Assembly: GCA_016700135.1 (NCBI GenBank)
Contig: CP065004.1
Coordinates: forward strand, 330,001 to 362,000
DNA length: 32,000 nucleotides
Reading direction: 5' to 3'
Source of the DNA: Candidatus Saccharimonadota bacterium
GTDB taxonomy: Bacteria; Patescibacteriota; Microgenomatia; UBA1406; GWC2-37-13
The translations under genes were made by a program, and so were the position numbers. Of this stretch, positions 4,482 through 31,521 are shown piece after piece (positions within the stretch are counted from its first letter, which is position 1; each line of letters opens with the position of its first letter). Under the pieces are notes generated by a model that was not told the origin of the DNA, did not search any database, and saw only the letters and a list, made by a program, of their open reading frames with translations.

Positions 4482-5363
4482 TTATTCATTTCCTTTATAC
4501 GCTTTTTCCAGTTCAGAGATATCAAACTTTTTCATCTTCATAAATGCTTTTGTTACCCGTTCCATCTGTTCTTTACTTCCCTTCCCCATCATCTCATCCA
4601 TGGCGGTCGGGACAATTTGCCAGGATACACCGAATTTGTCTTTGAGCCATCCGCACTGCTCTGCTTCCGGGACTGCTGAAAGCTTTTCCCAGTAATAATC
4701 AATTTCCTGCTGATCACGGCAGTTTACGATAAATGAAATCGCTTCATTAAAGGAAAATTTGTGATCATAGGCACTGTCTGAGATCATAAATACCTGTCCG
4801 TCCAGCGTAAATTCTGCGTGGTCAACCATCTTTTGACCCTCATCTTTTTCATTTCGATATACATGATCAATCGAGGAATTGTCAAAAATCTTCGTATAAA
4901 ACTCCATTGCTTCTTCGGCTTTCCCGCAGACTTTTCCCACAAACATCAAAAACGGAGAAATTTTCTGCTTAACTGAGCTGTAATCATTGGGCACATTAAG
5001 CTGCCAAGATAAACCATATTTGTCCTGTACCCAAGCGAATTTTTTGCTGAATTCGTACGTATCAAGCGGCATAAGCTCCGTGCCGCCTTCCATAAGAGCT
5101 TTGTGTAGTTTTTTGATCTCTTCTTCCGTCTCACACTGTACAGAAATTGAGATTGACGGATTAAATTTAAAAATCGGGCCGGCGCTAATTGACATAAACG
5201 GCTCTCCCGAAAGAGTGAAAGAAACAATATCGCAGTCTCCTGACGGTGTATCGGTGATTCGGGATACGTGATCAATGCTTGATCCGGAAAATAAAGAAGT
5301 GTAGAACTCTGCTGCTTCTTTCGCCTGAGTATCAAACCAAAGATGTGTTCTTATTTTTTTCAT
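4482..5363 (-). CDS. tandem PhnB-like/3-demethylubiquinone-9 3-methyltransferase-like (VOC superfamily) two-domain protein
   Basis: The domain is duplicated. LWFDTQAKEAAEFYTSLF...DKYGLSWQL is repeated as LMFVGKVCGKAEEAMEFYTKIF...DKFGVSWQI. Confidence 0.7.
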   Translation of the reverse strand: MKKIRTHLWFDTQAKEAAEFYTSLFSGSSIDHVSRITDTPSGDCDIVSFTLSGEPFMSISAGPIFKFNPSISISVQCETEEEIKKLHKALMEGGTELMPLDTYEFSKKFAWVQDKYGLSWQLNVPNDYSSVKQKISPFLMFVGKVCGKAEEAMEFYTKIFDNSSIDHVYRNEKDEGQKMVDHAEFTLDGQVFMISDSAYDHKFSFNEAISFIVNCRDQQEIDYYWEKLSAVPEAEQCGWLKDKFGVSWQIVPTAMDEMMGKGSKEQMERVTKAFMKMKKFDISELEKAYKGNE

Positions 5364-17439: not shown

Positions 17440-20022
17440 ATGAGCAACTTATATCAACAATTAAAATCAGATGTAATTAACTGGAGACAGCAGGGTTATC
17501 CCTCCTCCTACCCTGTTATTGCAACCATCCTAAACTTCAATAAAAATAATTTTCTAAGACAAGCACAATTTGAGGCACTCGAAACTTACTGGTATTTGCG
17601 ACTGGTTAAAAACACCCCCAATATCTTCGAGCTTTATAAAGAATACTTCCAAGGCAAGGATCTCCTGAAAGCTCTTGGAATTTCTCTGTCAGAGGAGGAT
17701 CTGACCGATTTGTTGCTAGCTGGAGGCGGAATAGATGCAATCTTCGAAAAGGTAAAAACTGATAATGTCTTCGTTAAGAAGTATAAGCTTGAAGCTTTAA
17801 GAGAAACCCTCACCCTTCCATACCCAAGCTACATCTTGGCTTTGGCAATGGGAGCAGGAAAAACAATCCTTATTGCCTCCATCATTGCCACTGAGTTTGC
17901 AATGGCTCTAGAGTATCAAGAGAAAGACGGTATTTTTGTCAGAAACGCTCTGGTATTTGCGCCAGGCAAGACCATCCTTGGAGCATTGAAGGAAATTGCC
18001 GATACTCCATACGACAAGATCCTGCCTGCACGCTTCTACAAATCATTTGTAACCAATGTGAAGTTTACCTATACCAGGGATGGCGAAAAGGACATTCCCG
18101 TCATTCGAGGCAGTTCCTTTAATGTTATCGTCACCAACACCGAGAAAATCAGACTACAAAAAAACAGTATTCCCAAGTCATTTCTCGGCACACAACTGAG
18201 CCTAGGATTAGAAGAAGCCAAAGAGCTGGTTGCCAATCTGCGCTTACAATCAATCACCTCCTTGCCTCACTTAGCCGTCTTTTCAGACGAAGCGCATCAC
18301 ACCTACGGACAAGCATTAGCAGAGGATCTCAAGCGGGTGCGCCAGACCATTAACTACATCAGTGAAAAAACCAATCTTCTGGCAGTTGTTAACACCACAG
18401 GCACGCCTTACTTCCAAAGACAGCTCCTGCGAGATGTTATTTACTGGTATGGACTCTCCCAGGGCATTGAGGATGGCATTCTCAAGGAAGTCCGAGGCAA
18501 CATTGTTGCTTACAAAGAGGTTTCAGAGGAAGACTTTGTTATCGATATCGTCAAAGACTTCTTTCAGGAATACAAAGATGTTCGAGTCAATAACGGCGAA
18601 TACGCAAAACTGGCAATCTACTTCCCTCAGGTTGATGACCTAGACCAGGCTAAACCAATCGTTGAGCAAACGCTCATCTCTCTGAAACTAGATCCATCAG
18701 TTGTCTTACCAGTCCACAATAAATCACCAGAAGACATCAAAGACCTCTTTGACAACCGCATCAACGACCCGCACCTGCCTTACAGGGTGTTCTTGCTAGT
18801 CAACAAAGGCACTGAAGGGTGGAACTGTTTGTCCTTATTTGCCACCGCACTTGCAAGGAAACTCTCTTCCAGCAATAACTTTGTGCTTCAGGCAGCCAGC
18901 AGGTGCTTGAGGCAGGTCAATGGCAATACCAAGAAAGCCAAGATTTATCTCTCCAAAGCCAATGTCTCAGTGCTCGACCGCCAGCTTCAGGAAACCTTTG
19001 GTGAGGGCTTGGATGACCTCAATCGAGCCAAGACCGATACTTACCCAGTTAAGATTACTCTCAAAAAACTAGAAATCGAACCAGTTATCATCAAGAAGCT
19101 TATCCAAAAGATCGTCCCAGAAAACGATGCATCTACCACCTTGAAGGTGGAGAAGCCCAAATCTGACGCCGTAGAGGGGCTTGAGAAGACTGTTTACACC
19201 ATGTCCAAAACCCAGAGGAAAGGCGTCCTGGTTGAGGTTGATAGCGAAAAATCAAAGCCCAGAGATGTAAAGGTTGATTTATACCAGGCAGCAGTCCTGC
19301 TTGCCCATACTTATCGCCTTGACTCTCTAGAGATTTATAAGCTCCTTGCACCTCTTTACCCAGATGGAGAGATGTCTGCTGTTGACCTAGAGCTTGTCCG
19401 TTTACAACTAGAAAAGCAAGTTATCAAATACAAAGTCACTACGGAGACAATCGAAGAAGCCCTGGCACTTATCAAGACCAAAGGCTTTGAGGAAGAAGTC
19501 GAAGACGGCAAGACCTCCTATGTTACCCACATTAGGGTCAATAAGGACAATCTAGAAAAGTATGTCTTGGATACCGACACTTATAAAAAGAAGGCGGGTC
19601 AAATGCCTTTGTTTGGTTTCCACTATGACCCTTACAACTTCGATTCAGAAGACGAACGAGCTTTCTTTGAACAAATATTGGACAAACTCGGCGAAGATCC
19701 AGATAATGTTGAGGATATTTACTTTACAGGGGCACTCACGGATAGGGAGAAAACAGACTTTGCGTTTGAATATAAAGACAATAAAGGCGACTGGCATTCA
19801 TACACACCTGATTTCTTGATCAGAAAGAAAGACGGCAAGTCGCTTATAGTCGAAGTCAAGGGTAAGCCATACAGAAACGAGGCAGCAGAAAAGGAAATGA
19901 AACAACTAGAGGCGATAAATCCTGATAAAATTAAATATGAACTCCTGCTCTTAGAGGAAGGTGAATCGGTGTTTGGTAAAGTAACGCCAGTCTTTAATTG
20001 GATTTACCAAGCCCAAAAATAA
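17440..20022 (+). CDS. res: type III restriction enzyme Res subunit (SF2 helicase plus PD-(D/E)xK nuclease)
   Basis: It has Walker A LAMGAGKT, DEAH box FSDEAHH, and the C-terminal nuclease motif YTPDF...IVEVKG. Length is 860 aa. Confidence 0.85.
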   Translation: MSNLYQQLKSDVINWRQQGYPSSYPVIATILNFNKNNFLRQAQFEALETYWYLRLVKNTPNIFELYKEYFQGKDLLKALGISLSEEDLTDLLLAGGGIDAIFEKVKTDNVFVKKYKLEALRETLTLPYPSYILALAMGAGKTILIASIIATEFAMALEYQEKDGIFVRNALVFAPGKTILGALKEIADTPYDKILPARFYKSFVTNVKFTYTRDGEKDIPVIRGSSFNVIVTNTEKIRLQKNSIPKSFLGTQLSLGLEEAKELVANLRLQSITSLPHLAVFSDEAHHTYGQALAEDLKRVRQTINYISEKTNLLAVVNTTGTPYFQRQLLRDVIYWYGLSQGIEDGILKEVRGNIVAYKEVSEEDFVIDIVKDFFQEYKDVRVNNGEYAKLAIYFPQVDDLDQAKPIVEQTLISLKLDPSVVLPVHNKSPEDIKDLFDNRINDPHLPYRVFLLVNKGTEGWNCLSLFATALARKLSSSNNFVLQAASRCLRQVNGNTKKAKIYLSKANVSVLDRQLQETFGEGLDDLNRAKTDTYPVKITLKKLEIEPVIIKKLIQKIVPENDASTTLKVEKPKSDAVEGLEKTVYTMSKTQRKGVLVEVDSEKSKPRDVKVDLYQAAVLLAHTYRLDSLEIYKLLAPLYPDGEMSAVDLELVRLQLEKQVIKYKVTTETIEEALALIKTKGFEEEVEDGKTSYVTHIRVNKDNLEKYVLDTDTYKKKAGQMPLFGFHYDPYNFDSEDERAFFEQILDKLGEDPDNVEDIYFTGALTDREKTDFAFEYKDNKGDWHSYTPDFLIRKKDGKSLIVEVKGKPYRNEAAEKEMKQLEAINPDKIKYELLLLEEGESVFGKVTPVFNWIYQAQK

Positions 20023-20024
20023 CT

Positions 20025-21809
20025 ATGACAAATGACACAAACAAAAAAATAAAAATCGGCACACCTAACGGCAGACCTATGCTAACATGGGTGAATAAAA
20101 GGCCGTTAGAATCGGTTACAGGTTATCCGACACAACTCACCGAGAGCTTTGGAGACAAAGAAGCGCTCAAAGTGCCTGAATACGGCAAGCTAGAAAAGAA
20201 CTGGCACAACCTTCTCTTTCATGGCGATAACAAAGAAGTGCTCGCCTCTCTCTTGGAGTTAGGTTTCAGAGGCAAGGTTGATCTGATTTATATCGATCCT
20301 CCCTTTGCGAGCAATAAAGATTACATGCGCAAGGTTGAGCTAAGGGGTTTGAAAAGCCTAGGGAGACTAGAAGAGGATAGTGAATCGATTATCCAACAAA
20401 CAATGTATGAAGATATTTGGAAGAGAGATGAATACTTCCAATTTATTTATGAGAGGCTAATTCTCCTCAAAGAACTGCTCGCCGAAACAGGCAGTATTTA
20501 TGTCCACCTTGATTATCGCATGGTTCACTACATCAAAGTATTACTTGACGAAATCTTTGGAGAGGATGGCTTAAAGGCTGAAATTATCTGGAACTATGAA
20601 ACAGGCGGTGTAAACAAAAATGAATATGGGAAAAAACATGACAGCATACTCTTTTACACAAAGAGCGACAAGTTCACATTCAATGCGCAAGATATTCTTG
20701 AAAAAAGAGGAGAAGAAGTATTAAGACGACTTGCTACAGGTGTCGAATCAGCAACTAGGGCTAAGAACGAATTAAGGTTGCCAACTGATGTGTGGAGAAT
20801 CCCTGCAATAAATGCAATGGCCTTGGAAAGGATGGACTATGCCACACAAAAACCAGAGGCGCTTCTAGAAAAAATTATTAAAGCTTCTTCTGATCAAGGA
20901 GATCTGGTAATGGACTGTTTTATTGGCTCTGGCACAACTTGTGCAGTAGCTCAAAAGCTCGCTAGACGATGGATTGGCGTCGATGTCAACAAAGGCGCTA
21001 TCCAAGTAACTAGCAAAAGATTGCAGAAGATTATCAAGGAACAACAGAAAAAACTTATTGACGGACAAATTAGTAAAGCATTGGGGATCTATAAAGTTAA
21101 CAACTATGACCTGAGAATCCTCAAGACTGAAGCCAAAGAGCTAGCAATCCAACAATATGGAATCACCAGAACAAAAACAGAGACATTCTTTGATGGTTTA
21201 AGAGATAGTGGCGAACTGGTAAAAATCATAGACTTCAATCACCCGCTCACACTTCTTGACCTGCAGCTTATCAAGGACGAACTCGATAAACGACCAGAAG
21301 AAGACAGAGATATCGTTGTAATTTGTCTAGGAAGAGAGACAAAAGTCGATTCCTGGGTTGAGGAATGGAATAAAAAACAACCTCATAAAGACGCACGCAC
21401 CAGTAAGCGCATGAGGCAGTTCGTTGTCTTTGATCTTAAGGACAAGAACTTTGTCAGCTACGAACCCTCAAAAGCTGAAGTCGAGATTACTAGAGCGGGT
21501 AAAGATAAAGATAAAGTTAAAATCAAGGTTGTCTCTTTTATCTCCCCTTCCATAATCAAACGCTTGGAACTTGAACCAGGACTACTGCAAAAAAAGATTC
21601 CAGACTTCAGATCAATGATCGATGTCGTTTTGGTAGATACAAACTATGACAACGAAGTGTTCAAGATTGGCTTCTCTGATGTCCCAGAGAAACAGAGCGA
21701 CCTGGTCAAGGGAGAATACGAGCTTGAGATAACAGAAAAACCATCCAAAGTGGCAGTCAAAATCATTGACATGTTAGGAGAAGAAGTCTTGGTTACCAAA
21801 GAAGTGTAA
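20025..21809 (+). CDS. mod: type III Mod-like beta-class amino DNA methyltransferase
   Basis: Motif IV DLIYIDPPF precedes motif I CFIGSGTTCAVAQKL. The ATG at 20025 is 2 nt after the res stop; the track's TTG start is at 19998. Confidence 0.85.
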   Translation: MTNDTNKKIKIGTPNGRPMLTWVNKRPLESVTGYPTQLTESFGDKEALKVPEYGKLEKNWHNLLFHGDNKEVLASLLELGFRGKVDLIYIDPPFASNKDYMRKVELRGLKSLGRLEEDSESIIQQTMYEDIWKRDEYFQFIYERLILLKELLAETGSIYVHLDYRMVHYIKVLLDEIFGEDGLKAEIIWNYETGGVNKNEYGKKHDSILFYTKSDKFTFNAQDILEKRGEEVLRRLATGVESATRAKNELRLPTDVWRIPAINAMALERMDYATQKPEALLEKIIKASSDQGDLVMDCFIGSGTTCAVAQKLARRWIGVDVNKGAIQVTSKRLQKIIKEQQKKLIDGQISKALGIYKVNNYDLRILKTEAKELAIQQYGITRTKTETFFDGLRDSGELVKIIDFNHPLTLLDLQLIKDELDKRPEEDRDIVVICLGRETKVDSWVEEWNKKQPHKDARTSKRMRQFVVFDLKDKNFVSYEPSKAEVEITRAGKDKDKVKIKVVSFISPSIIKRLELEPGLLQKKIPDFRSMIDVVLVDTNYDNEVFKIGFSDVPEKQSDLVKGEYELEITEKPSKVAVKIIDMLGEEVLVTKEV

Positions 21810-21814
21810 CTAAA

Positions 21815-23683
21815 CTAAGCCTTCGCTTTTTCCTCACCAGAAAACTCTTTAATTAGAACATCGAATACTTTCTTGAAGTTTTCTTTGGTATCCTTTGAAA
21901 GTTTATCTTTTACTTCAGTAGCTCTAGATAAAAACTTTTTAGCTAATAAAACTTTGTCAGCTTTGGCTTTGGTGACATACTCTGAGTTGCTGGATTTATA
22001 AGTTTTTGAGCTGTCTTCTATAACATGATTTATAAAGTCCTCTTGGGTAAACAAATCTTCTATCCGCACGCCATCGCTATCCGAAACCGCTTTGATTTGT
22101 GCTTTTTCAACTAGCCACCTTTTTGTTAGGTTTTTCTCTCCATCCTTCTTGCCCTGGTCACTATCGTAAAGGTATAGCACCTTACAACCCCAACCATGTA
22201 GGATTGTTCCCACTTTTGGCATATTTCCTGAACCGCCACCGTAAATAAAGTTTAACTGCCCATCGTCTAAGATCGTCTTAAAAGCTGTCAGGTAATACCA
22301 ATCGGAAGGCCCCTCAACCACCACATTATTGAGCTTGTCAGGATTGGTAATTCCACTCGTTATTTCAAGTCCTATTGCAGTCAAGATAGGGGTTAAGGTT
22401 TCCTTGTCCGACACTTTGTGAATCTTTGATTCAACAGTCGTCCCATCCTCTCGTCCTCTAAAAACTAAACGCACCCGATCCAATTTGTCTGGATCGAGCA
22501 AGTAAGGAGAATGTGTGGAGAAAATGACTGGCATCTTGGCTGAACGATCCTCTAAAACGCTCAGAACATCTCTTTGTGCCTTAGCATGCAAATAAAGCCC
22601 AGGTTCGTCAACCAAAAGGTAGTTTTGTGTGCCAGACTCATAATGAAGCTTGAGCTGGATATAAAAAGAGAGAAACCATTGGAAGCCCTTACTTCGTTGC
22701 TGCATGCTGAACTTTTCACTTTTACCTTCTTCAACAAAGCCAAATACCAAATTATCTCCGTCAAGCATTGCTTCAAGTTCAACCTTATCTTGATTCCAAA
22801 AATCCAAGAAATCTCCCGTAATCGTGGTCGATTTACGACTCAGGTAGTTGATGTTTTGCTGTCGTGTTCGTTCTGCGTTAAGAAGGAGGTCTAGGTCTAT
22901 CTCAGAAATTTTAGCAAAATTCAGCACCGCCTTGTTTTTCTTGGCTTCAGCTAAGGGAATTTGAAACGGCAAAAGATTTTCAAAAGAATCAAAGTAGATA
23001 AAGTTTGGGGTCGATTTGACCAGCGCGTCTGTAAACTTTCTCTCTAGATCAAGAGTTGTCTGAAGTTGTTGAGCTAACTTCACGGCTTCGGCCATATACT
23101 GAGTGGCAGTATTCCTCTGTGCCTCATCCTCGATCTTTGGCAAAAGCGGGGTTAGTTGTTGTTGAAAATCAGTTAATTGCTTTACTAGTGGCGCTGCATC
23201 ACTAAAATCCAGCTCTGGTAAAGTCAAACCAACTGCCTCATTTTTTTTCAGAACTAAAGAAACAGAAGACGCCTTTCCTTTTATGGCTTTCCTTATTTCA
23301 TTAGCTTGCCCATCTAATTTTCCATTTAGCCACTTAGATGTGTCACCATCGAGGTCATAGGTTTTAGGAAATGTCTTAGTAATCGTAAGGTCACAAGATT
23401 TTTGCTCTTTACCTTCTAGTCCGATTGCCTGCAGTAAAGGGTTTATCTCATCTGCTGATAATGTAAAGGTAATTGCGACCTGTGATACGGCCTCCTCATT
23501 AAAAATAGGTTTAGCCTCTTTTCTAATTTCCTTGTCTTTATCAAAATCTTCAACCGCCTCTAATATCGCAGTTTTCCCCGACTCATTTTTCCCAGCAAGT
23601 ATAGTAACCTTTTCCTCAAGATAGATATCTCCAGAATTCTGGACTGAACGATAGTTATTGATCCGAACCTTTTTAATTCTCAT
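21815..23683 (-). CDS. OLD-family ABC-type ATPase fused to a Toprim nuclease domain
   Basis: It has Walker A GKNESGKT, Walker B LLVDEPGLYLH and H-loop STHSPY. The C-terminal Toprim has VVVEGPSDWYYL and LYDSDQG. It is convergent with mod, with 5 nt between the stops. Confidence 0.75.
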   Translation of the reverse strand: MRIKKVRINNYRSVQNSGDIYLEEKVTILAGKNESGKTAILEAVEDFDKDKEIRKEAKPIFNEEAVSQVAITFTLSADEINPLLQAIGLEGKEQKSCDLTITKTFPKTYDLDGDTSKWLNGKLDGQANEIRKAIKGKASSVSLVLKKNEAVGLTLPELDFSDAAPLVKQLTDFQQQLTPLLPKIEDEAQRNTATQYMAEAVKLAQQLQTTLDLERKFTDALVKSTPNFIYFDSFENLLPFQIPLAEAKKNKAVLNFAKISEIDLDLLLNAERTRQQNINYLSRKSTTITGDFLDFWNQDKVELEAMLDGDNLVFGFVEEGKSEKFSMQQRSKGFQWFLSFYIQLKLHYESGTQNYLLVDEPGLYLHAKAQRDVLSVLEDRSAKMPVIFSTHSPYLLDPDKLDRVRLVFRGREDGTTVESKIHKVSDKETLTPILTAIGLEITSGITNPDKLNNVVVEGPSDWYYLTAFKTILDDGQLNFIYGGGSGNMPKVGTILHGWGCKVLYLYDSDQGKKDGEKNLTKRWLVEKAQIKAVSDSDGVRIEDLFTQEDFINHVIEDSSKTYKSSNSEYVTKAKADKVLLAKKFLSRATEVKDKLSKDTKENFKKVFDVLIKEFSGEEKAKA

Positions 23684-27053: not shown

Positions 27054-27183
27054 AAAATCTAATCTTGCAAAAAATATCACTGAAACAAAGATTCTCGTAT
27101 ATAACACACTACATACGAGAAGAAGGGCATCTCTGTTTGATATTCCCTAAAAGTTTCTTTATGTTGTGTGTTGCAAAATTACT

Positions 27184-28791
27184 ATGAAAACTGCCATATT
27201 CTGCCGTGTCAGCTCAAAAGAACAAGAGGAGACAGGCTACTCCTTACCAGCCCAGGAGAAGTTCCTCAGAGAGTATGCCGAAAAACAAGGCTTAGAGGTC
27301 GGCAGGGTATTTGCTATTTCCGAGTCGGCTGCAGGCAAAATTCAGCGAAAAACCTTCAATGAGATGCTTGAGTTTGTCAGAAAGAAAAATATCTGCTCCA
27401 TCGTCGTTGAAACCACAGACAGGCTTACCAGAAACTTCTCCGATGTGCCAACCATCGACAAGTGGATCATGGAAGACGATCAACACCAAGTCCATTTGGC
27501 GAAAGAAGGCTGTGTGTTACACAACGCCTCCCGCTCTCACGAGTGGTTCATGTGGCGGGTAAAGGTAGCGACAGCCGAGTATTATGTCCGCTTGCTCTCC
27601 GAGAATGTAAAGAAAGGACAGAAAGAAAAGCTCGCCCAGGGTTGGATACCAACCAAGCCCCCACTAGGATATAAGACTGTTGGTGAGACTGGACACAAAA
27701 TCCACATCATAGACGAAGGCTCAGCACCCCTAGTGAGGAAAATGTTTGAACTATACGCCTCTGGTGACTACTCGATAAAGAGGCTGGCGCAAACCATGTA
27801 TGACGAGGGCATGCGCTCTCCACAAGGCAATAGGCTGGTTAATAGCCGTCTCCACTCCCTCTTACGAGATCCCTTTTACATCGGTAAAATAAGATGGAAC
27901 GACGAAATTCATGAAGGTAAACACCAGCCTTTGATTAGCAAAGAGCTGTTTGATAAAGTTCAGGCACTACTTGTGAGCAAAACAACACCCAAATACAACA
28001 AACACGACTACCTTTTCAAGGGAATGATCCGCTGTGCTGAGTGCGACGGCTTAATCACCTGGGAAATGCACCGAGGGCATCATTACGGACACTGCAATCA
28101 TTATCACGCCTGCACCCAGGAAGGCTGGGTTAAAGAACCAGAGGTTGAAGAACAACTACTTTCAGGCTTTGACGGATTGAAACTTAAGAATAGCCGCATA
28201 GTCGATTGGCTCAAGAAAGCGCTCAAAGAAAGCCATCAGGACGAGATCGAATACCATAACAGCACTGTCGGCGAGCTACAAGCCCGCTACGAGGCAATTC
28301 AGAAGCGGATGGATAAGTTATACGACGATAAGCTGGATGAAAAGATTACCCCAGACTTTTATGCTAGGAAATTCAAGCAATACTCAGAGGAAAAAGACGA
28401 AGTCGCCGAATCAATGAAAAGGCACTCAACCGCCAGCACAGGCTACCTGAACCTGGGCATAAACCTCTATGAACTCTCTCAAAGAGCCAGGGAAATCTAT
28501 CTCCAAGCCAAAGCAAAAGACATGTTAGACGAGCAACGAGCCTTAATCAGACTGGTATTTGGCAAGTTGATACTTAATAACGGAAAACTCTCCTGGGAAT
28601 ACTCCAAAGCCTTCAAGATACTCTCCGAAGCGGTCAACGAGACTAATTGTTCGAAAGTGGATAAAATCGACGATTTTGAAAATGGGAAATTCGAACATCA
28701 CAAAAAGACCGATGTTGCGGGGCAAAAGGGCAATTTGTTGCCCGCTCGTCCCATCTGGCTCCCCGACGTGGATTCGAACCACGAACCTTGA
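27184..28791 (+). CDS. large serine recombinase (integrase)
   Basis: It has the catalytic N-terminus AIFCRVSSKEQ, DRLTRN, a recombinase domain and the Zn ribbon CAECDG...HCNHYHAC, followed by a coiled-coil. The last 23 codons or so run antisense through the tRNA-Asn terminator and 3' exon. Confidence 0.9.
   Translation: MKTAIFCRVSSKEQEETGYSLPAQEKFLREYAEKQGLEVGRVFAISESAAGKIQRKTFNEMLEFVRKKNICSIVVETTDRLTRNFSDVPTIDKWIMEDDQHQVHLAKEGCVLHNASRSHEWFMWRVKVATAEYYVRLLSENVKKGQKEKLAQGWIPTKPPLGYKTVGETGHKIHIIDEGSAPLVRKMFELYASGDYSIKRLAQTMYDEGMRSPQGNRLVNSRLHSLLRDPFYIGKIRWNDEIHEGKHQPLISKELFDKVQALLVSKTTPKYNKHDYLFKGMIRCAECDGLITWEMHRGHHYGHCNHYHACTQEGWVKEPEVEEQLLSGFDGLKLKNSRIVDWLKKALKESHQDEIEYHNSTVGELQARYEAIQKRMDKLYDDKLDEKITPDFYARKFKQYSEEKDEVAESMKRHSTASTGYLNLGINLYELSQRAREIYLQAKAKDMLDEQRALIRLVFGKLILNNGKLSWEYSKAFKILSEAVNETNCSKVDKIDDFENGKFEHHKKTDVAGQKGNLLPARPIWLPDVDSNHEP
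28724..28743 (-). terminator. intrinsic terminator of tRNA-Asn
   Basis: The minus strand reads GGGCAA-CAAA-TTGCCC followed by TTTTG, starting 12 nt after the encoded CCA. Confidence 0.5.
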
Positions 28792-29052
28792 AGTTACATG
28801 TAATCTCTGTGTTTCCACAAAGCATGGACTATATCTTTACCTTTTCTCCTAAGAGATGAAGGTAGTGGGCGCTTTCCGCCAACTGGCGGAGGTGTACTCA
28901 CCTAGTCTCTGCACCTTGTCCGATAATTATCGAACCTTGGCTCAGTATTACCATTTCAGGCTTCACTGAATTCACCCACTTTTCCATTCAGTATTTCTAC
29001 TGAAGGCTGCGATCTTTCACAGCTTCCTGCTCTACCGTTGAGCTATCGGGGA
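28756..29052 (-). tRNA. tRNA-Asn(GUU) interrupted by a group I intron
   Basis: The exons are 29052-29019 and 28796-28756. Joined, they form a 75-nt cloverleaf. It has a 7-bp acceptor stem TCCCCGA/TCGGGGA with U1-A72, discriminator G73 and an encoded CCA. Its D arm is GCTC-AACGGTA-GAGC, its anticodon loop CUGUUAA, and its T arm CGTGG-TTCGAAT-CCACG. Confidence 0.85.
28797..29018 (-). ncRNA. group I intron (IC3-like, ORF-less, 222 nt)
   Basis: The 5' splice site follows a U that sits in a U-G pair of P1 (GCUGU|G with CGCAGC), and the intron ends in G. The core strings ACTGAGCCAAGG, AAGGTGCAGAGACTAGG and GGTAAAGATATAGTCC parallel the Azoarcus tRNA-Ile and Anabaena tRNA-Leu introns. P7 is GACTA/TAGTC. 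Confidence 0.85.
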
Positions 29053-29060
29053 TCGTGTTT

Positions 29061-29117
29061 CATTCCTGCTCTACCTCCGCCTTCGCCAGCTGGCGAATGG
29101 CGGAGAGCTATCGTGGA
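29061..29117 (-). repeat. tRNA-Asn 5'-half copy B with a nested palindrome replacing the D-loop
   Basis: The minus strand reads TCCACGATAGCTC [TCCGCC A TTCGCCAGCTGGCGAA GGCGGA] GGTAGAGCAGGAATG. It lies 8 nt upstream of the genuine tRNA and contains the GIY-YIG stop codon. Confidence 0.8.
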
Positions 29118-29359
29118 ATGTATGTTTTAATGTGCTGCCTACCTCTATAACTTTTTAATTGTTTTTCTCTTCTCAAAGCATCTTGCCTTGTTTTACATGC
29201 TTCTTGATAGATCAATATCCATTCTCCATCATACCTACTTGTATATGAGCCTTTGAATATGCCTCTATTGTGCAAATCTATTCGCTCTTCAAGCTTTTCC
29301 GTCTGTCCGATGTAAATCTTATCATGCTTTTTATTGTATAAAGCATAGACAAAAAACAT
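29108..29359 (-). CDS. GIY-YIG (URI-domain) nuclease family protein, 83 aa
   Basis: FFVYALYNKKHDKIYIGQT (the GIY...YIG motif), followed by R..LHN and RREKQLK, typical of COG2827-type small GIY-YIG proteins. Confidence 0.85.
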   Translation of the reverse strand: MFFVYALYNKKHDKIYIGQTEKLEERIDLHNRGIFKGSYTSRYDGEWILIYQEACKTRQDALRREKQLKSYRGRQHIKTYIPR

Positions 29360-29364
29360 AATAA

Positions 29365-29408
29365 CATTCCTGCTCTACCTCCGCCGGCCGGCGGAGAGCT
29401 ATCGGGGA
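29365..29408 (-). repeat. tRNA-Asn 5'-half copy C with an 18-bp perfect palindrome replacing the D-loop
   Basis: The minus strand reads TCCCCGATAGCTC [TCCGCCGGCCGGCGGA] GGTAGAGCAGGAATG. Its AGGA serves as the SD for the GIY-YIG ATG 7 nt downstream. Confidence 0.8.
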
Positions 29409-29423
29409 TATTGATTGTAAAGT

Positions 29424-29456
29424 GCTTCCCAGACAGCATATTCTGCTATCGGGGAT
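29424..29456 (-). repeat. degenerate tRNA-Asn 5'-half copy D next to the promoter
   Basis: The minus strand reads ATCCCCGATAGC AGAATATGCTGTCTG GGAAGC. The 12-nt and 6-nt flanks are identical to the genuine tRNA, and the D arm differs. Confidence 0.65.
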
Positions 29457-29466
29457 GATAAGGGCT

Positions 29467-29493
29467 ATTATACCATTTTTCGCCTGATTTCAA
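29467..29493 (-). promoter_or_regulatory. extended -10 promoter (TGGTATAAT) driving copy D, copy C, GIY-YIG, copy B and tRNA-Asn
   Basis: On the minus strand TGGTATAAT is at 29467-29475 and TTGAAA at 29488-29493, with a short 15-nt spacer. Copy D starts 11 nt downstream of the -10, the usual spacing for a tRNA gene. Confidence 0.5.
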
Positions 29494-29533
29494 AACAAAA
29501 GAGATCCTGAATCGAGTTCAGTATGACAACAAC

Positions 29534-30112
29534 CTAGAAAGGCAACGTGAGCTCGGTCTGATCATTCCCTGAATCCTCCATATACTTTTGCCAGTCGACC
29601 GGAATGGATACTTTTCCCATTTCATTCATATAAAAGATTTCCTTGTTCTCAATGCCGTAATCAAAGAGCTTTTTTGTCACCATGACATCGTCAAGACAGT
29701 ATTTTTTCAACTCGTCCCACTTCCCTTCTTTGTAGTAGTCAATTGCCATCAGACCGTGACCGGTTTTCTTCTCATTCAGTGTGGCAAAAGCTACATCATT
29801 CAGACCGATACGACGTCCAATTTTCTCGCGGATCGAATCAAGAATATCAAATTGAGAAAGAGAATCCACTTTCCCAGGATAGTATGCCTGAAGGACCGGA
29901 AGATCAAAAGTCCGGCTATTGTAGCCGATGATGTATGATGCATTTTCCAGAAGCGGAAAGAGACTATTCAGTTCCTGCTCAGTAAATACCTGTCCTTTTT
30001 CCGTTGCATAATCATAAACCGCAACTACCGATATCCCCAGTTTCTGAGGATCATCAACTTCGCGGAACGTGTGTTTTGTCTCAAGATCAAGAATCAGCGG
30101 AAACTTAGACAT
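29534..30112 (-). CDS. DEDDh 3'-5' exonuclease (RNase T / DNA Pol III epsilon-like)
   Basis: Exo I LILDLET, Exo II IGYNSRTFDLPVL, Exo III HGLMAIDY...CLDDV. Confidence 0.8.
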   Translation of the reverse strand: MSKFPLILDLETKHTFREVDDPQKLGISVVAVYDYATEKGQVFTEQELNSLFPLLENASYIIGYNSRTFDLPVLQAYYPGKVDSLSQFDILDSIREKIGRRIGLNDVAFATLNEKKTGHGLMAIDYYKEGKWDELKKYCLDDVMVTKKLFDYGIENKEIFYMNEMGKVSIPVDWQKYMEDSGNDQTELTLPF

Positions 30113-31412: not shown

Positions 31413-31451
31413 TACTCATACTCGCTTGAGTGTAGACCCTTTCCGGGGTAG

Positions 31452-31521
31452 TGTACGGCTGCACAGGAGGCTCATAATCTCCTAGGCCAGGTTCAACTCC
31501 TGGCCCCGGAACAAGAAAATA
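31452..31521 (+). tRNA. tRNA with CAU anticodon (elongator Met or Ile2), CCA not encoded
   Basis: The acceptor stem is TCCGGGG/CCCCGGA and the D arm is GTGT-ACGGCT-GCAC. The anticodon arm is GGAGG-CTCATAA-TCTCC and the T arm is CCAGG-TTCAACT-CCTGG. The discriminator is A, followed by CA. It lacks initiator features. Confidence 0.8.

Follow-up and report, generated by a model that had tools for sequence, protein, structure and literature searches.

A tRNA-Asn(GUU) gene split by an Asn.4Ug group I intron in a Patescibacteria genome, and a GIY-YIG gene cassette at the same locus

Group I introns inside the tRNA genes of bacteria were classically known from four hosts, the genes for tRNA-Leu, tRNA-Arg, tRNA-fMet and tRNA-Ile2, in every case as members of subgroup IC3; this list has since been extended to 21 settings (Williams, bioRxiv 2020, doi 10.1101/2020.01.27.920355). 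The seed alignment of that study includes Pam37.Asn.4Ug, an intron in the same tRNA and at the same loop position as the one described here, again with U-1 and omega-G; the Asn.4Ug class was defined computationally, with no splicing assay reported. A search of the literature for group I introns in association with tRNA-Asn found nothing beyond this study. A related arrangement from other systems is 'collaborative homing', in which a free-standing endonuclease is paired with an intron lacking an open reading frame (ORF) of its own (PMC3984707, PMC2790892). In this work, a 32,000 nt stretch of the genome of a Candidatus Saccharimonadota bacterium (assembly GCA_016700135.1, contig CP065004.1, positions 330,001 to 362,000; hereafter the window, to which coordinates refer unless stated otherwise) was found to contain a minus strand tRNA-Asn gene divided in two. 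Very probably the gene is functional, a tRNA-Asn(GUU) gene of the Candidate Phyla Radiation (CPR)/Patescibacteria into which an ORF-less Asn.4Ug group I intron is inserted between positions 35 and 36. Membership of this class is evident from sequence and structure, from conservation, from the junction and from a presence/absence polymorphism; actual splicing, and use of the product as the tRNA-Asn of the cell, are what we infer. The intron is a member of a catalogued and common class, rather than a new one. The unit consists of the following features, in the order of transcription:

29467..29475, minus strand: candidate promoter of the extended -10 type, TGGTATAAT, upstream of the entire unit, read by eye
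29019..29052, minus strand: tRNA-Asn(GUU) exon 1, positions 1-35, 34 nt, ending ...GGAAG-CUGU (ARAGORN, spliced and unspliced)
28797..29018, minus strand: ORF-less group I intron of 222 nt, from G29018 to the omega-G at 28797 (RF00028, helices, covariation)
28756..28796, minus strand: tRNA-Asn exon 2, positions 36-76, 41 nt including CCA, UAA-CUUCA...GGGGAG-CCA (ARAGORN)

On the minus strand, the sequence therefore runs TCCCCGATAGCTCAACGGTAGAGCAGGAAGCTGT / GAAAGATCGCAGCC...GATTACATG / TAACTTCAAGGTTCGTGGTTCGAATCCACGTCGGGGAGCCA, these being exon 1, the two ends of the intron and exon 2. With its default settings, ARAGORN missed the split gene, and made a single call in the window, a tRNA-Met at 31442-31512. 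When introns were allowed, the unspliced DNA was reported as tRNA-Asn i(35,222), which places the intron between positions 35 and 36 and agrees with an earlier reading of the locus from its letters alone (the sequence-only reading), in which two tRNA halves had been recognised 222 nt apart on this strand. That reading further held that the joined halves form a canonical 75-nt tRNA with the anticodon loop CUGUUAA, U1-A72 and G73. ARAGORN indeed folds the joined exons into the normal cloverleaf of a tRNA-Asn(gtt) of 75 nt, with these same features in its drawing; only 'canonical' needs qualification, as G27.A43, at the top of the anticodon stem, is a mismatch. The exact ligated sequence, GGAAGCTGT/TAACTTCAAGGTTCG, is present in 47 metagenome contigs. 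One of these, L144, carries an uninterrupted gene that is identical at 75/75 positions to the tRNA-Asn spliced in silico and scores 64.7 bits on the Rfam tRNA model, whilst having flanks unrelated to those of the tRNA-Asn in the window. Hence the exons are those of a bona fide tRNA-Asn, and alleles with and without the intron coexist in nature.

The intervening sequence matches the Rfam group I intron model (RF00028, Intron_gpI) at 28805-29028 on the minus strand, covering the model from end to end (1-253/253) with 90.6 bits and E = 3e-22; given a gathering score of 50, this is far above chance, and a chance match was rejected. Thirteen helices could be drawn (P1 to P9, with P6a, P7.1, P7.2 and P8a), all 71 pairs of which are Watson-Crick or G.U. 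Their variation was assessed in a MAFFT alignment of 24 ORF-less tRNA-Asn introns, taken from a scan of a genome collection. The elements of the fold are:

29006..29023, minus strand: P1, exon GCUGU (29023-29019) with guide GCAGC (29010-29006), 8-nt loop GAAAGAUC
28987..29004, minus strand: P2, hairpin with a GAAA tetraloop (L2), all 7 pairs varying on both sides across relatives
28864..28980, minus strand: P3 (28980-28973 with 28871-28864), enclosing P4-P5, P6/P6a, the 5' strand of P7, P7.1 and P7.2
28942..28969, minus strand: P4-P5, inside P3
28913..28941, minus strand: P6/P6a, inside P3
28826..28909, minus strand: P7, guanosine-binding, G-A(bulge)-GACUA (28909-28903) with UAGUCC (28831-28826)
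28891..28902, minus strand: P7.1, mini-hairpin GGUG-AGUA-CACC, common to relatives L001, L023, L027 and L122
28875..28890, minus strand: P7.2 position, palindromic GC hairpin UCCGCC-AGUU-GGCGGA, not in L001, L023, L027 or L122
28839..28863, minus strand: P8/P8a, hairpin, 7/9 pairs varying on both sides
28805..28822, minus strand: P9, hairpin with a GAAA tetraloop (L9), 6/7 pairs varying on both sides

Across the 24 introns, 83% of paired cells are able to pair, as against 34-45% in slid controls, and 42 pairs vary on both sides; none of 500 shuffles matched the observed values. The covarying helices are P2, P3, P4, P6, P8 and P9, with P1 and P7 being invariant; the low pairing values of P6a, P7.1 and P7.2 reflect a length-variable periphery that is beyond the MAFFT alignment. 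This agrees with the covariance model, and the original diagnosis of a group I intron is upheld on both counts. P7 is pseudoknotted around the 3' strand of P3 and P8, retains its bulged A, has six pairs that are unchanged in 24/24 relatives, and coincides with the P7 annotated in the Williams alignment. In P1, the U35 at the 5' splice site is held in a U.G wobble, and the pairs C-G, U-A, G-C and U.G are likewise the same in 24/24; the base at the 3' end of the intron is a G (28797), the omega-G. Both of these details of the splice sites, a U in a G-U pair and a terminal G, had been predicted from the sequence. The G and A positions of the GNRA loops L2 and L9 do not vary across relatives. P5 is short, at 3 bp, and there is no P5abc-type stabiliser. 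As had also been claimed, the intron has no ORF, stops being present in all three frames.

The most informative relative is a sister strain, L001 (GCA_964504235.1), the flanks of which are essentially identical to those in the window and the intron core of which is 100% identical. The two sequences are separated by four discrete differences: an ORF in loop L1, the palindrome at P7.2, an insertion upstream of the tRNA and divergence on its 3' side. In L001, the P1 loop is approximately 330 nt long and encodes a 115-aa HNH-type ORF (236-583 of that sequence, minus strand) that runs into P2-P5 of the ribozyme; in its place the window has just GAAAGATC, an 8-nt L1 similar to that of the ORF-less relative L027 (GAAAGTTT). 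At the P7.2 position, a 16-nt palindrome, TCCGCCAGTTGGCGGA, replaces the TTT of L001. Upstream of the tRNA-Asn, the window has a 356-nt insertion that L001 lacks. The candidate promoter TGGTATAAT is kept in both L001 and L122, the latter a syntenic relative from Roizmanbacteria. A consensus scan for promoters and terminators over 28500-29700 gave nothing above chance; it demands a -35 hexamer, so TGGTATAAT was not picked up. A weak terminator-like hairpin was noted by eye downstream of the tRNA-Asn.

Taking the gene to be functional, a precursor would be transcribed from the promoter upstream of the tRNA and the intron would fold into its P1-P9 core. Exogenous guanosine bound in P7 would attack the phosphodiester following U35, presented in the U.G wobble of GCUGU with GCAGC; the terminal G (28797) would then take over the G site, and the freed 3'-OH of U35 would attack the 3' splice site. 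CUGU would thus be joined to UAA, restoring the loop CUGUUAA, and normal end-processing would yield tRNA-Asn. Several observations weigh against this. A P10 pairing was sought by eye in the sequence, and none was convincing; experimental or transcript evidence for the splicing of any Asn.4Ug intron was not found in the literature; the P7.2 position has recently received the 16-nt palindrome, though this is a peripheral site; and the anticodon stem has the G27.A43 mismatch, but so do close relatives and uninterrupted alleles. Finally, the search for a second, uninterrupted tRNA-Asn covered this window only.

The last point is one on which a different explanation draws: that the intron is a decaying relic, dead for splicing, and this copy of tRNA-Asn a pseudogene, the cell using another tRNA-Asn gene. 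Such decay might be expected at a locus so heavily invaded, by a GIY-YIG cassette, by the palindrome in the intron and by an island on the 3' side, and in an intron from which a homing-endonuclease ORF is missing. However, the core helices are all intact and the catalytic strings are those of the family consensus; between the window and the sister strain the core shows 100% identity, many relatives have a natural P7.2 at the site of the palindrome, and the exons are identical to the uninterrupted gene of L144; CPR genomes, moreover, usually have single copies of their tRNA genes. We therefore regard a relic as improbable. It is slightly less probable again that a genuine intron is unable to splice alone and depends on a protein cofactor or chaperone in vivo, for instance on account of the short P5 or the inserted P7.2. 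Some group I introns do require protein factors, according to a review, and this one, besides being small, has the P5 of 3 bp and lacks a P5abc-type stabiliser; yet a candidate maturase is found neither within the intron nor beside it, unless that role falls to the GIY-YIG protein. It also has GAAA in both L2 and L9, as do Azoarcus-type tRNA introns, which are small and robustly self-splicing. Also rejected were a pseudogene with a decayed core and a tRNA borne on the island; against the latter origin speaks the synteny that the tRNA, its promoter region and the genes upstream show in L001 and L122.

The likeness to Pam37.Asn.4Ug extends from the host tRNA-Asn(GUU) and the site after the fourth nucleotide of the anticodon loop (CUGU/UAA) to the wobble-paired U-1, the omega-G and a hairpin between P7 and the 3' strand of P3, followed by AGCGCCC. 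The two differ in that identity is approximately 73% over the alignable part, that the P2-P3 region in the window is much shorter, and that the window copy has a different P7.1 and an extra, palindromic P7.2. Like the introns of Azoarcus tRNA-Ile(CAU) and cyanobacterial tRNA-Leu(UAA), the window intron is small, ORF-less and sited in an anticodon loop, has the core strings GAGCCAAG and AAGGUG(C/U)AGAGACUAG, has GAAA in L2 and L9, and forms its P1 from nucleotides of the anticodon stem-loop. Unlike them, it occupies another tRNA and another loop position, possesses P7.1 (and P7.2), and has GGGUGAAUUC as J3/4 where theirs is GUCAAAUUC; their pairwise scores to it are also lower than those of the seeds with a P7.1. 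The best scores were to Phe.2Ug, Lys.2Ug and Asn.4Ug, in all of which a hairpin is found at the P7.1 position, although global pairwise alignment to the seed introns (scores 123-180) separates the subgroups weakly. According to a review, P7.1 and P7.2 are among the criteria by which subgroups are assigned; their presence is typical of IA. The GNRA loops of L2 and L9 are those of IC3, but the classical IC3 seeds have no insert between P7 and P3', whereas the window intron has P7.1 and P7.2. Hence the IC3 assignment of the sequence-only reading appears partly supported by anatomy and pairwise similarity: the parallels that it drew to the core strings of the Azoarcus and cyanobacterial introns hold, and the region between P7 and P3' departs from the classical type.

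A scan of the genome collection with the signature AGAGACTA-N-AGCGCCC-N-GAKATAGTCC recovered at least 120 loci. Among the matches listed, to which the following counts apply, tRNA-Asn(gtt) was the commonest host (46/120), ahead of Phe (24), Gln (13) and Thr (10), and in all 46 tRNA-Asn loci exon 1 ends in CTGT, the intron in G, and exon 2 starts with TAA. The host labels comprise WWE3, Patescibacteria, Saccharibacteria, Peribacteria, Peregrinibacteria and Parcubacteria, as well as Nitrospira, Acidobacteria, Aminicenantes, Deltaproteobacteria, Elusimicrobia, Cyanobacteria, Eubacteriales and others. It had been correctly remarked that Asn(GUU) is not one of the four classic hosts, but the novelty this implied is contradicted by these numbers and by the earlier cataloguing of Asn.4Ug. 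The same core signature (AGAGACTA, hairpin, AGCGCCC ... GAKATAGTCC) was present in at least 120 viral contigs (L176-L295), with 119 of the 124 viral matches listed lying outside tRNA genes; the viral and Asn loci that were sampled are group I introns by Rfam. Some viral contigs (L215, L217, L240 and L250) have two introns about 1 kb apart. Within 2 kb of the split tRNA-Asn of L027, the closest ORF-less relative, lie a further group I intron match (56 bits, 4681-4887, plus strand) and another tRNA (4981-5052, minus strand).

Homologues of the HNH-type ORF of L001, with 49-79% identity, were found in 12/12 long tRNA-Asn introns among the matches listed, and also in some non-Asn loci; the assignment to HNH itself comes from a weak Pfam match (E = 8e-4). 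In the window, a relic of this ORF survives at 28959-29009, consisting of its last 17 codons, which double as ribozyme core. An endonuclease ORF inside the intron is therefore absent from the window copy and present in L001. Compared with mobile introns that encode their own homing endonuclease, the resemblance is that L001 and the long Asn introns carry an HNH-type ORF and that intron-plus and intron-minus alleles coexist; the difference is that the window copy is without an ORF, and that the HNH protein is a putative endonuclease. Judged from the sequences of its relatives, some of which carry the HNH form and others an identical tRNA with no intron, the window intron is a mobile element by descent.

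The insertion upstream of the tRNA-Asn has three components on the minus strand:

29361..29408, minus strand: orphan tRNA-Asn 5' copy 1, TCCCCGATAGCTC, then palindrome TCCGCCGGCCGGCGGA (29395-29380) replacing the D-loop, then GGTAGAGCAGGAATG
29108..29359, minus strand: GIY-YIG nuclease gene, 83 aa, stop TAG inside orphan copy 2 (Pfam PF01541)
29053..29117, minus strand: orphan tRNA-Asn 5' copy 2, TCCACGATAGCTC, nested palindrome (29104-29076), GGTAGAGCAGGAATG and an 8-nt spacer

The order is thus an orphan copy of the tRNA 5' end, the GIY-YIG ORF, a second orphan copy, the 8-nt spacer and then the real tRNA-Asn. The PF01541 match (54.3 bits) covers residues 1-74 of 83, such that the GIY-YIG domain fills the 83 aa and there is no separate DNA-binding domain besides the catalytic one. 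The protein is 100% identical to one from Candidatus Roizmanbacteria (P0001), which places the window in a CPR/Patescibacteria genome, and has 402 homologues, mostly 81-89 aa in length. The cassette as a whole (29053-29408) is missing from the otherwise identical L001 site, and is found again in L122, L123-L128, L130, L137, L142, L151 and L175; by tblastn, it lies upstream of 7/42 intron-less alleles having enough upstream sequence. Its relation to the tRNA is clearest in Curtissbacteria and Sungbacteria contigs, in which positions 1-10 of an intact tRNA-Asn without an intron form the end of the homologous ORF (ATT CCC CGA TAG, the TAG being U8-A9-G10); the orphan 5' copy that precedes this ORF follows the tRNA sequence of the host itself and contains TCCGCCAGC(T/C)GGCGGA. 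L122 has the double arrangement seen in the window, together with a 260-nt intron. In the metagenome cassettes, the orphan copy is composed of positions 1-10, a palindrome in place of the whole D-arm, and CA-GGAAGCTGT; its end, at around positions 35-39, is separated from the ATG by 5-12 nt. Compensatory changes are seen in the palindromes, for example TCCGTCAGCTGACGGA. Among the best 120 protein clusters, the C-terminus is x-P-x in 81 and AQR or AQW in 10, so at least 76% fit an overlap with tRNA-Asn, these ends being the expected translations, in two frames, of an ORF running into the tRNA-Asn 5' end. A search of the literature on GIY-YIG proteins with tRNA, Patescibacteria or CPR did not find this arrangement described.

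On the basis of about ten inspected contexts and the C-terminal statistics, we tentatively propose that the GIY-YIG gene, the palindrome (TCCGCC-N-GGCGGA) and the replacement tRNA 5' half represent a class of mobile cassette, found in CPR bacteria, that is so far undescribed, although we would not put the chances as high as even. Such a cassette would insert in the anticodon-loop region of tRNA-Asn and rebuild the tRNA with its own 5' half; the orphaned chromosomal half would be reused as a promoter and a 5' untranslated region, with a stabilising hairpin and a Shine-Dalgarno-like AGGAAG, and U8-A9-G10 of the rebuilt tRNA would serve as the stop codon of the ORF. Alternatively, the GIY-YIG protein, an Slx1-like mini-nuclease, could act on RNA. 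The nearest likeness to a proposed cassette of this kind is SegB of phage T4 (PMC2330249), also a free-standing GIY-YIG gene beside or inside a tRNA gene, the presence of which varies between close relatives. Unlike SegB-type endonucleases, the cassette protein is a predicted nuclease of 83 aa comprising the catalytic domain alone, and the cassette duplicates the tRNA 5' half, always has the conserved palindrome, and is chromosomal in CPR bacteria rather than phage-borne. As in collaborative homing (PMC3984707, PMC2790892), it adjoins an ORF-less intron inserted in its apparent target region. Since this target overlaps the 35/36 intron site, intron and cassette could be partners or competitors, and by analogy their relation could be comparable to collaborative homing.

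Two further observations concern tRNA fragments of this type. An 11-nt relic of a tRNA 5' end, TCCCCGATAGC (29445-29455, minus strand), lies in the leader, where the candidate promoter precedes it and either the first orphan copy (window) or the tRNA (L001) follows; L122 does not have it at that spot. The relic may be the scar of an older cassette. In L130 (around 5097) and L157 (around 952), near-full-length tRNA-Asn-like copies have the whole D-arm replaced by a palindrome (TCCGCCGACTGGCGGA and CGTCAGCTGACG) and run on through the anticodon loop with the junction sequence intact; in L130, a second tRNA lies directly upstream.

Palindromic GC hairpins of the form TCCGCC-N-GGCGGA occur at 28875-28890, 29076-29104 and 29380-29395, three in the window where none would be expected by chance, all of them at the tRNA-Asn locus, and the copy in the intron has the same motif as the two in the cassette. 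Several such hairpins are perfect DNA palindromes (also in L033, L042, L060, L062 and L025). In other CPR loci the motif is approximately 7-fold enriched in split tRNA genes, with 5/14 matches falling in 5% of the bases, and it also occurs in the Williams seed introns Gba28 and Mba143. The palindrome may therefore be a small mobile element that is tolerated in peripheral RNA loops. A link between GIY-YIG and the solitary palindrome of the intron, which could be a copy mobilised in trans by the cassette, is suspected from one strain pair and the enrichment; when co-occurrence of palindrome and gene was examined over the 120 listed loci, the relaxed pattern was too common, and the gene was present in just two.

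On the other side of the tRNA lies a further element, marked by the following gene:

27166..28791, plus strand: large serine recombinase gene (Pfam Resolvase, Recombinase, Zn_ribbon_recom)

The last ~36 nt of this gene overlap the 3' exon of the tRNA-Asn on the opposite strand. The window diverges from L001 directly after tRNA position 74 (...GGGGAGC), with the junction near 28757/28758, which indicates an integrated element to the left that abuts the tRNA 3' end. The CCA following GGGGAGC is encoded in the window, and in neither L001 nor L122; given the point of divergence, it derives from the differing downstream sequence, and the integrated element appears to supply it. The far boundary of the island was not located: the 50 nt 3' of the L001 tRNA were sought across the window, and were absent. 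Inside the putative element is a full-length match to the LOOT RNA (RF03000, 25051-25171, minus strand, 79.4 bits), neighboured by a 290-aa ORF of unknown function and a helix-turn-helix protein. To the left of the recombinase, 17440-23683 encodes an 860-aa ResIII/TnsA-like protein, an N6/N4 DNA methylase and an AAA_15/AbiEii-like ATPase, a cluster with a flavour of defence or restriction that may be cargo of the integrated element.

For the intron, the value of this locus is confirmatory, as it provides a clean and well-supported example, with a comparison between sister strains, of a class known from one computational preprint. Introns at the 35/36 site of tRNA-Asn are common and phylogenetically widespread; hence the textbook list of four bacterial hosts is badly outdated. 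Standard annotation misses the split gene, and thus small CPR genomes can seem to be without a tRNA-Asn. Less expected than the intron was the small nuclease gene cassette wedged in the same tRNA gene. At this locus, a compact natural experiment in nested selfish elements, a single essential gene of 75 nt is contested by an intron in which an HNH ORF may be present or absent, a GIY-YIG cassette, a serine-recombinase island and a mobile palindrome. Should the GIY-YIG cassette prove truly mobile, it would represent a new way in which to occupy a tRNA gene without destroying it.

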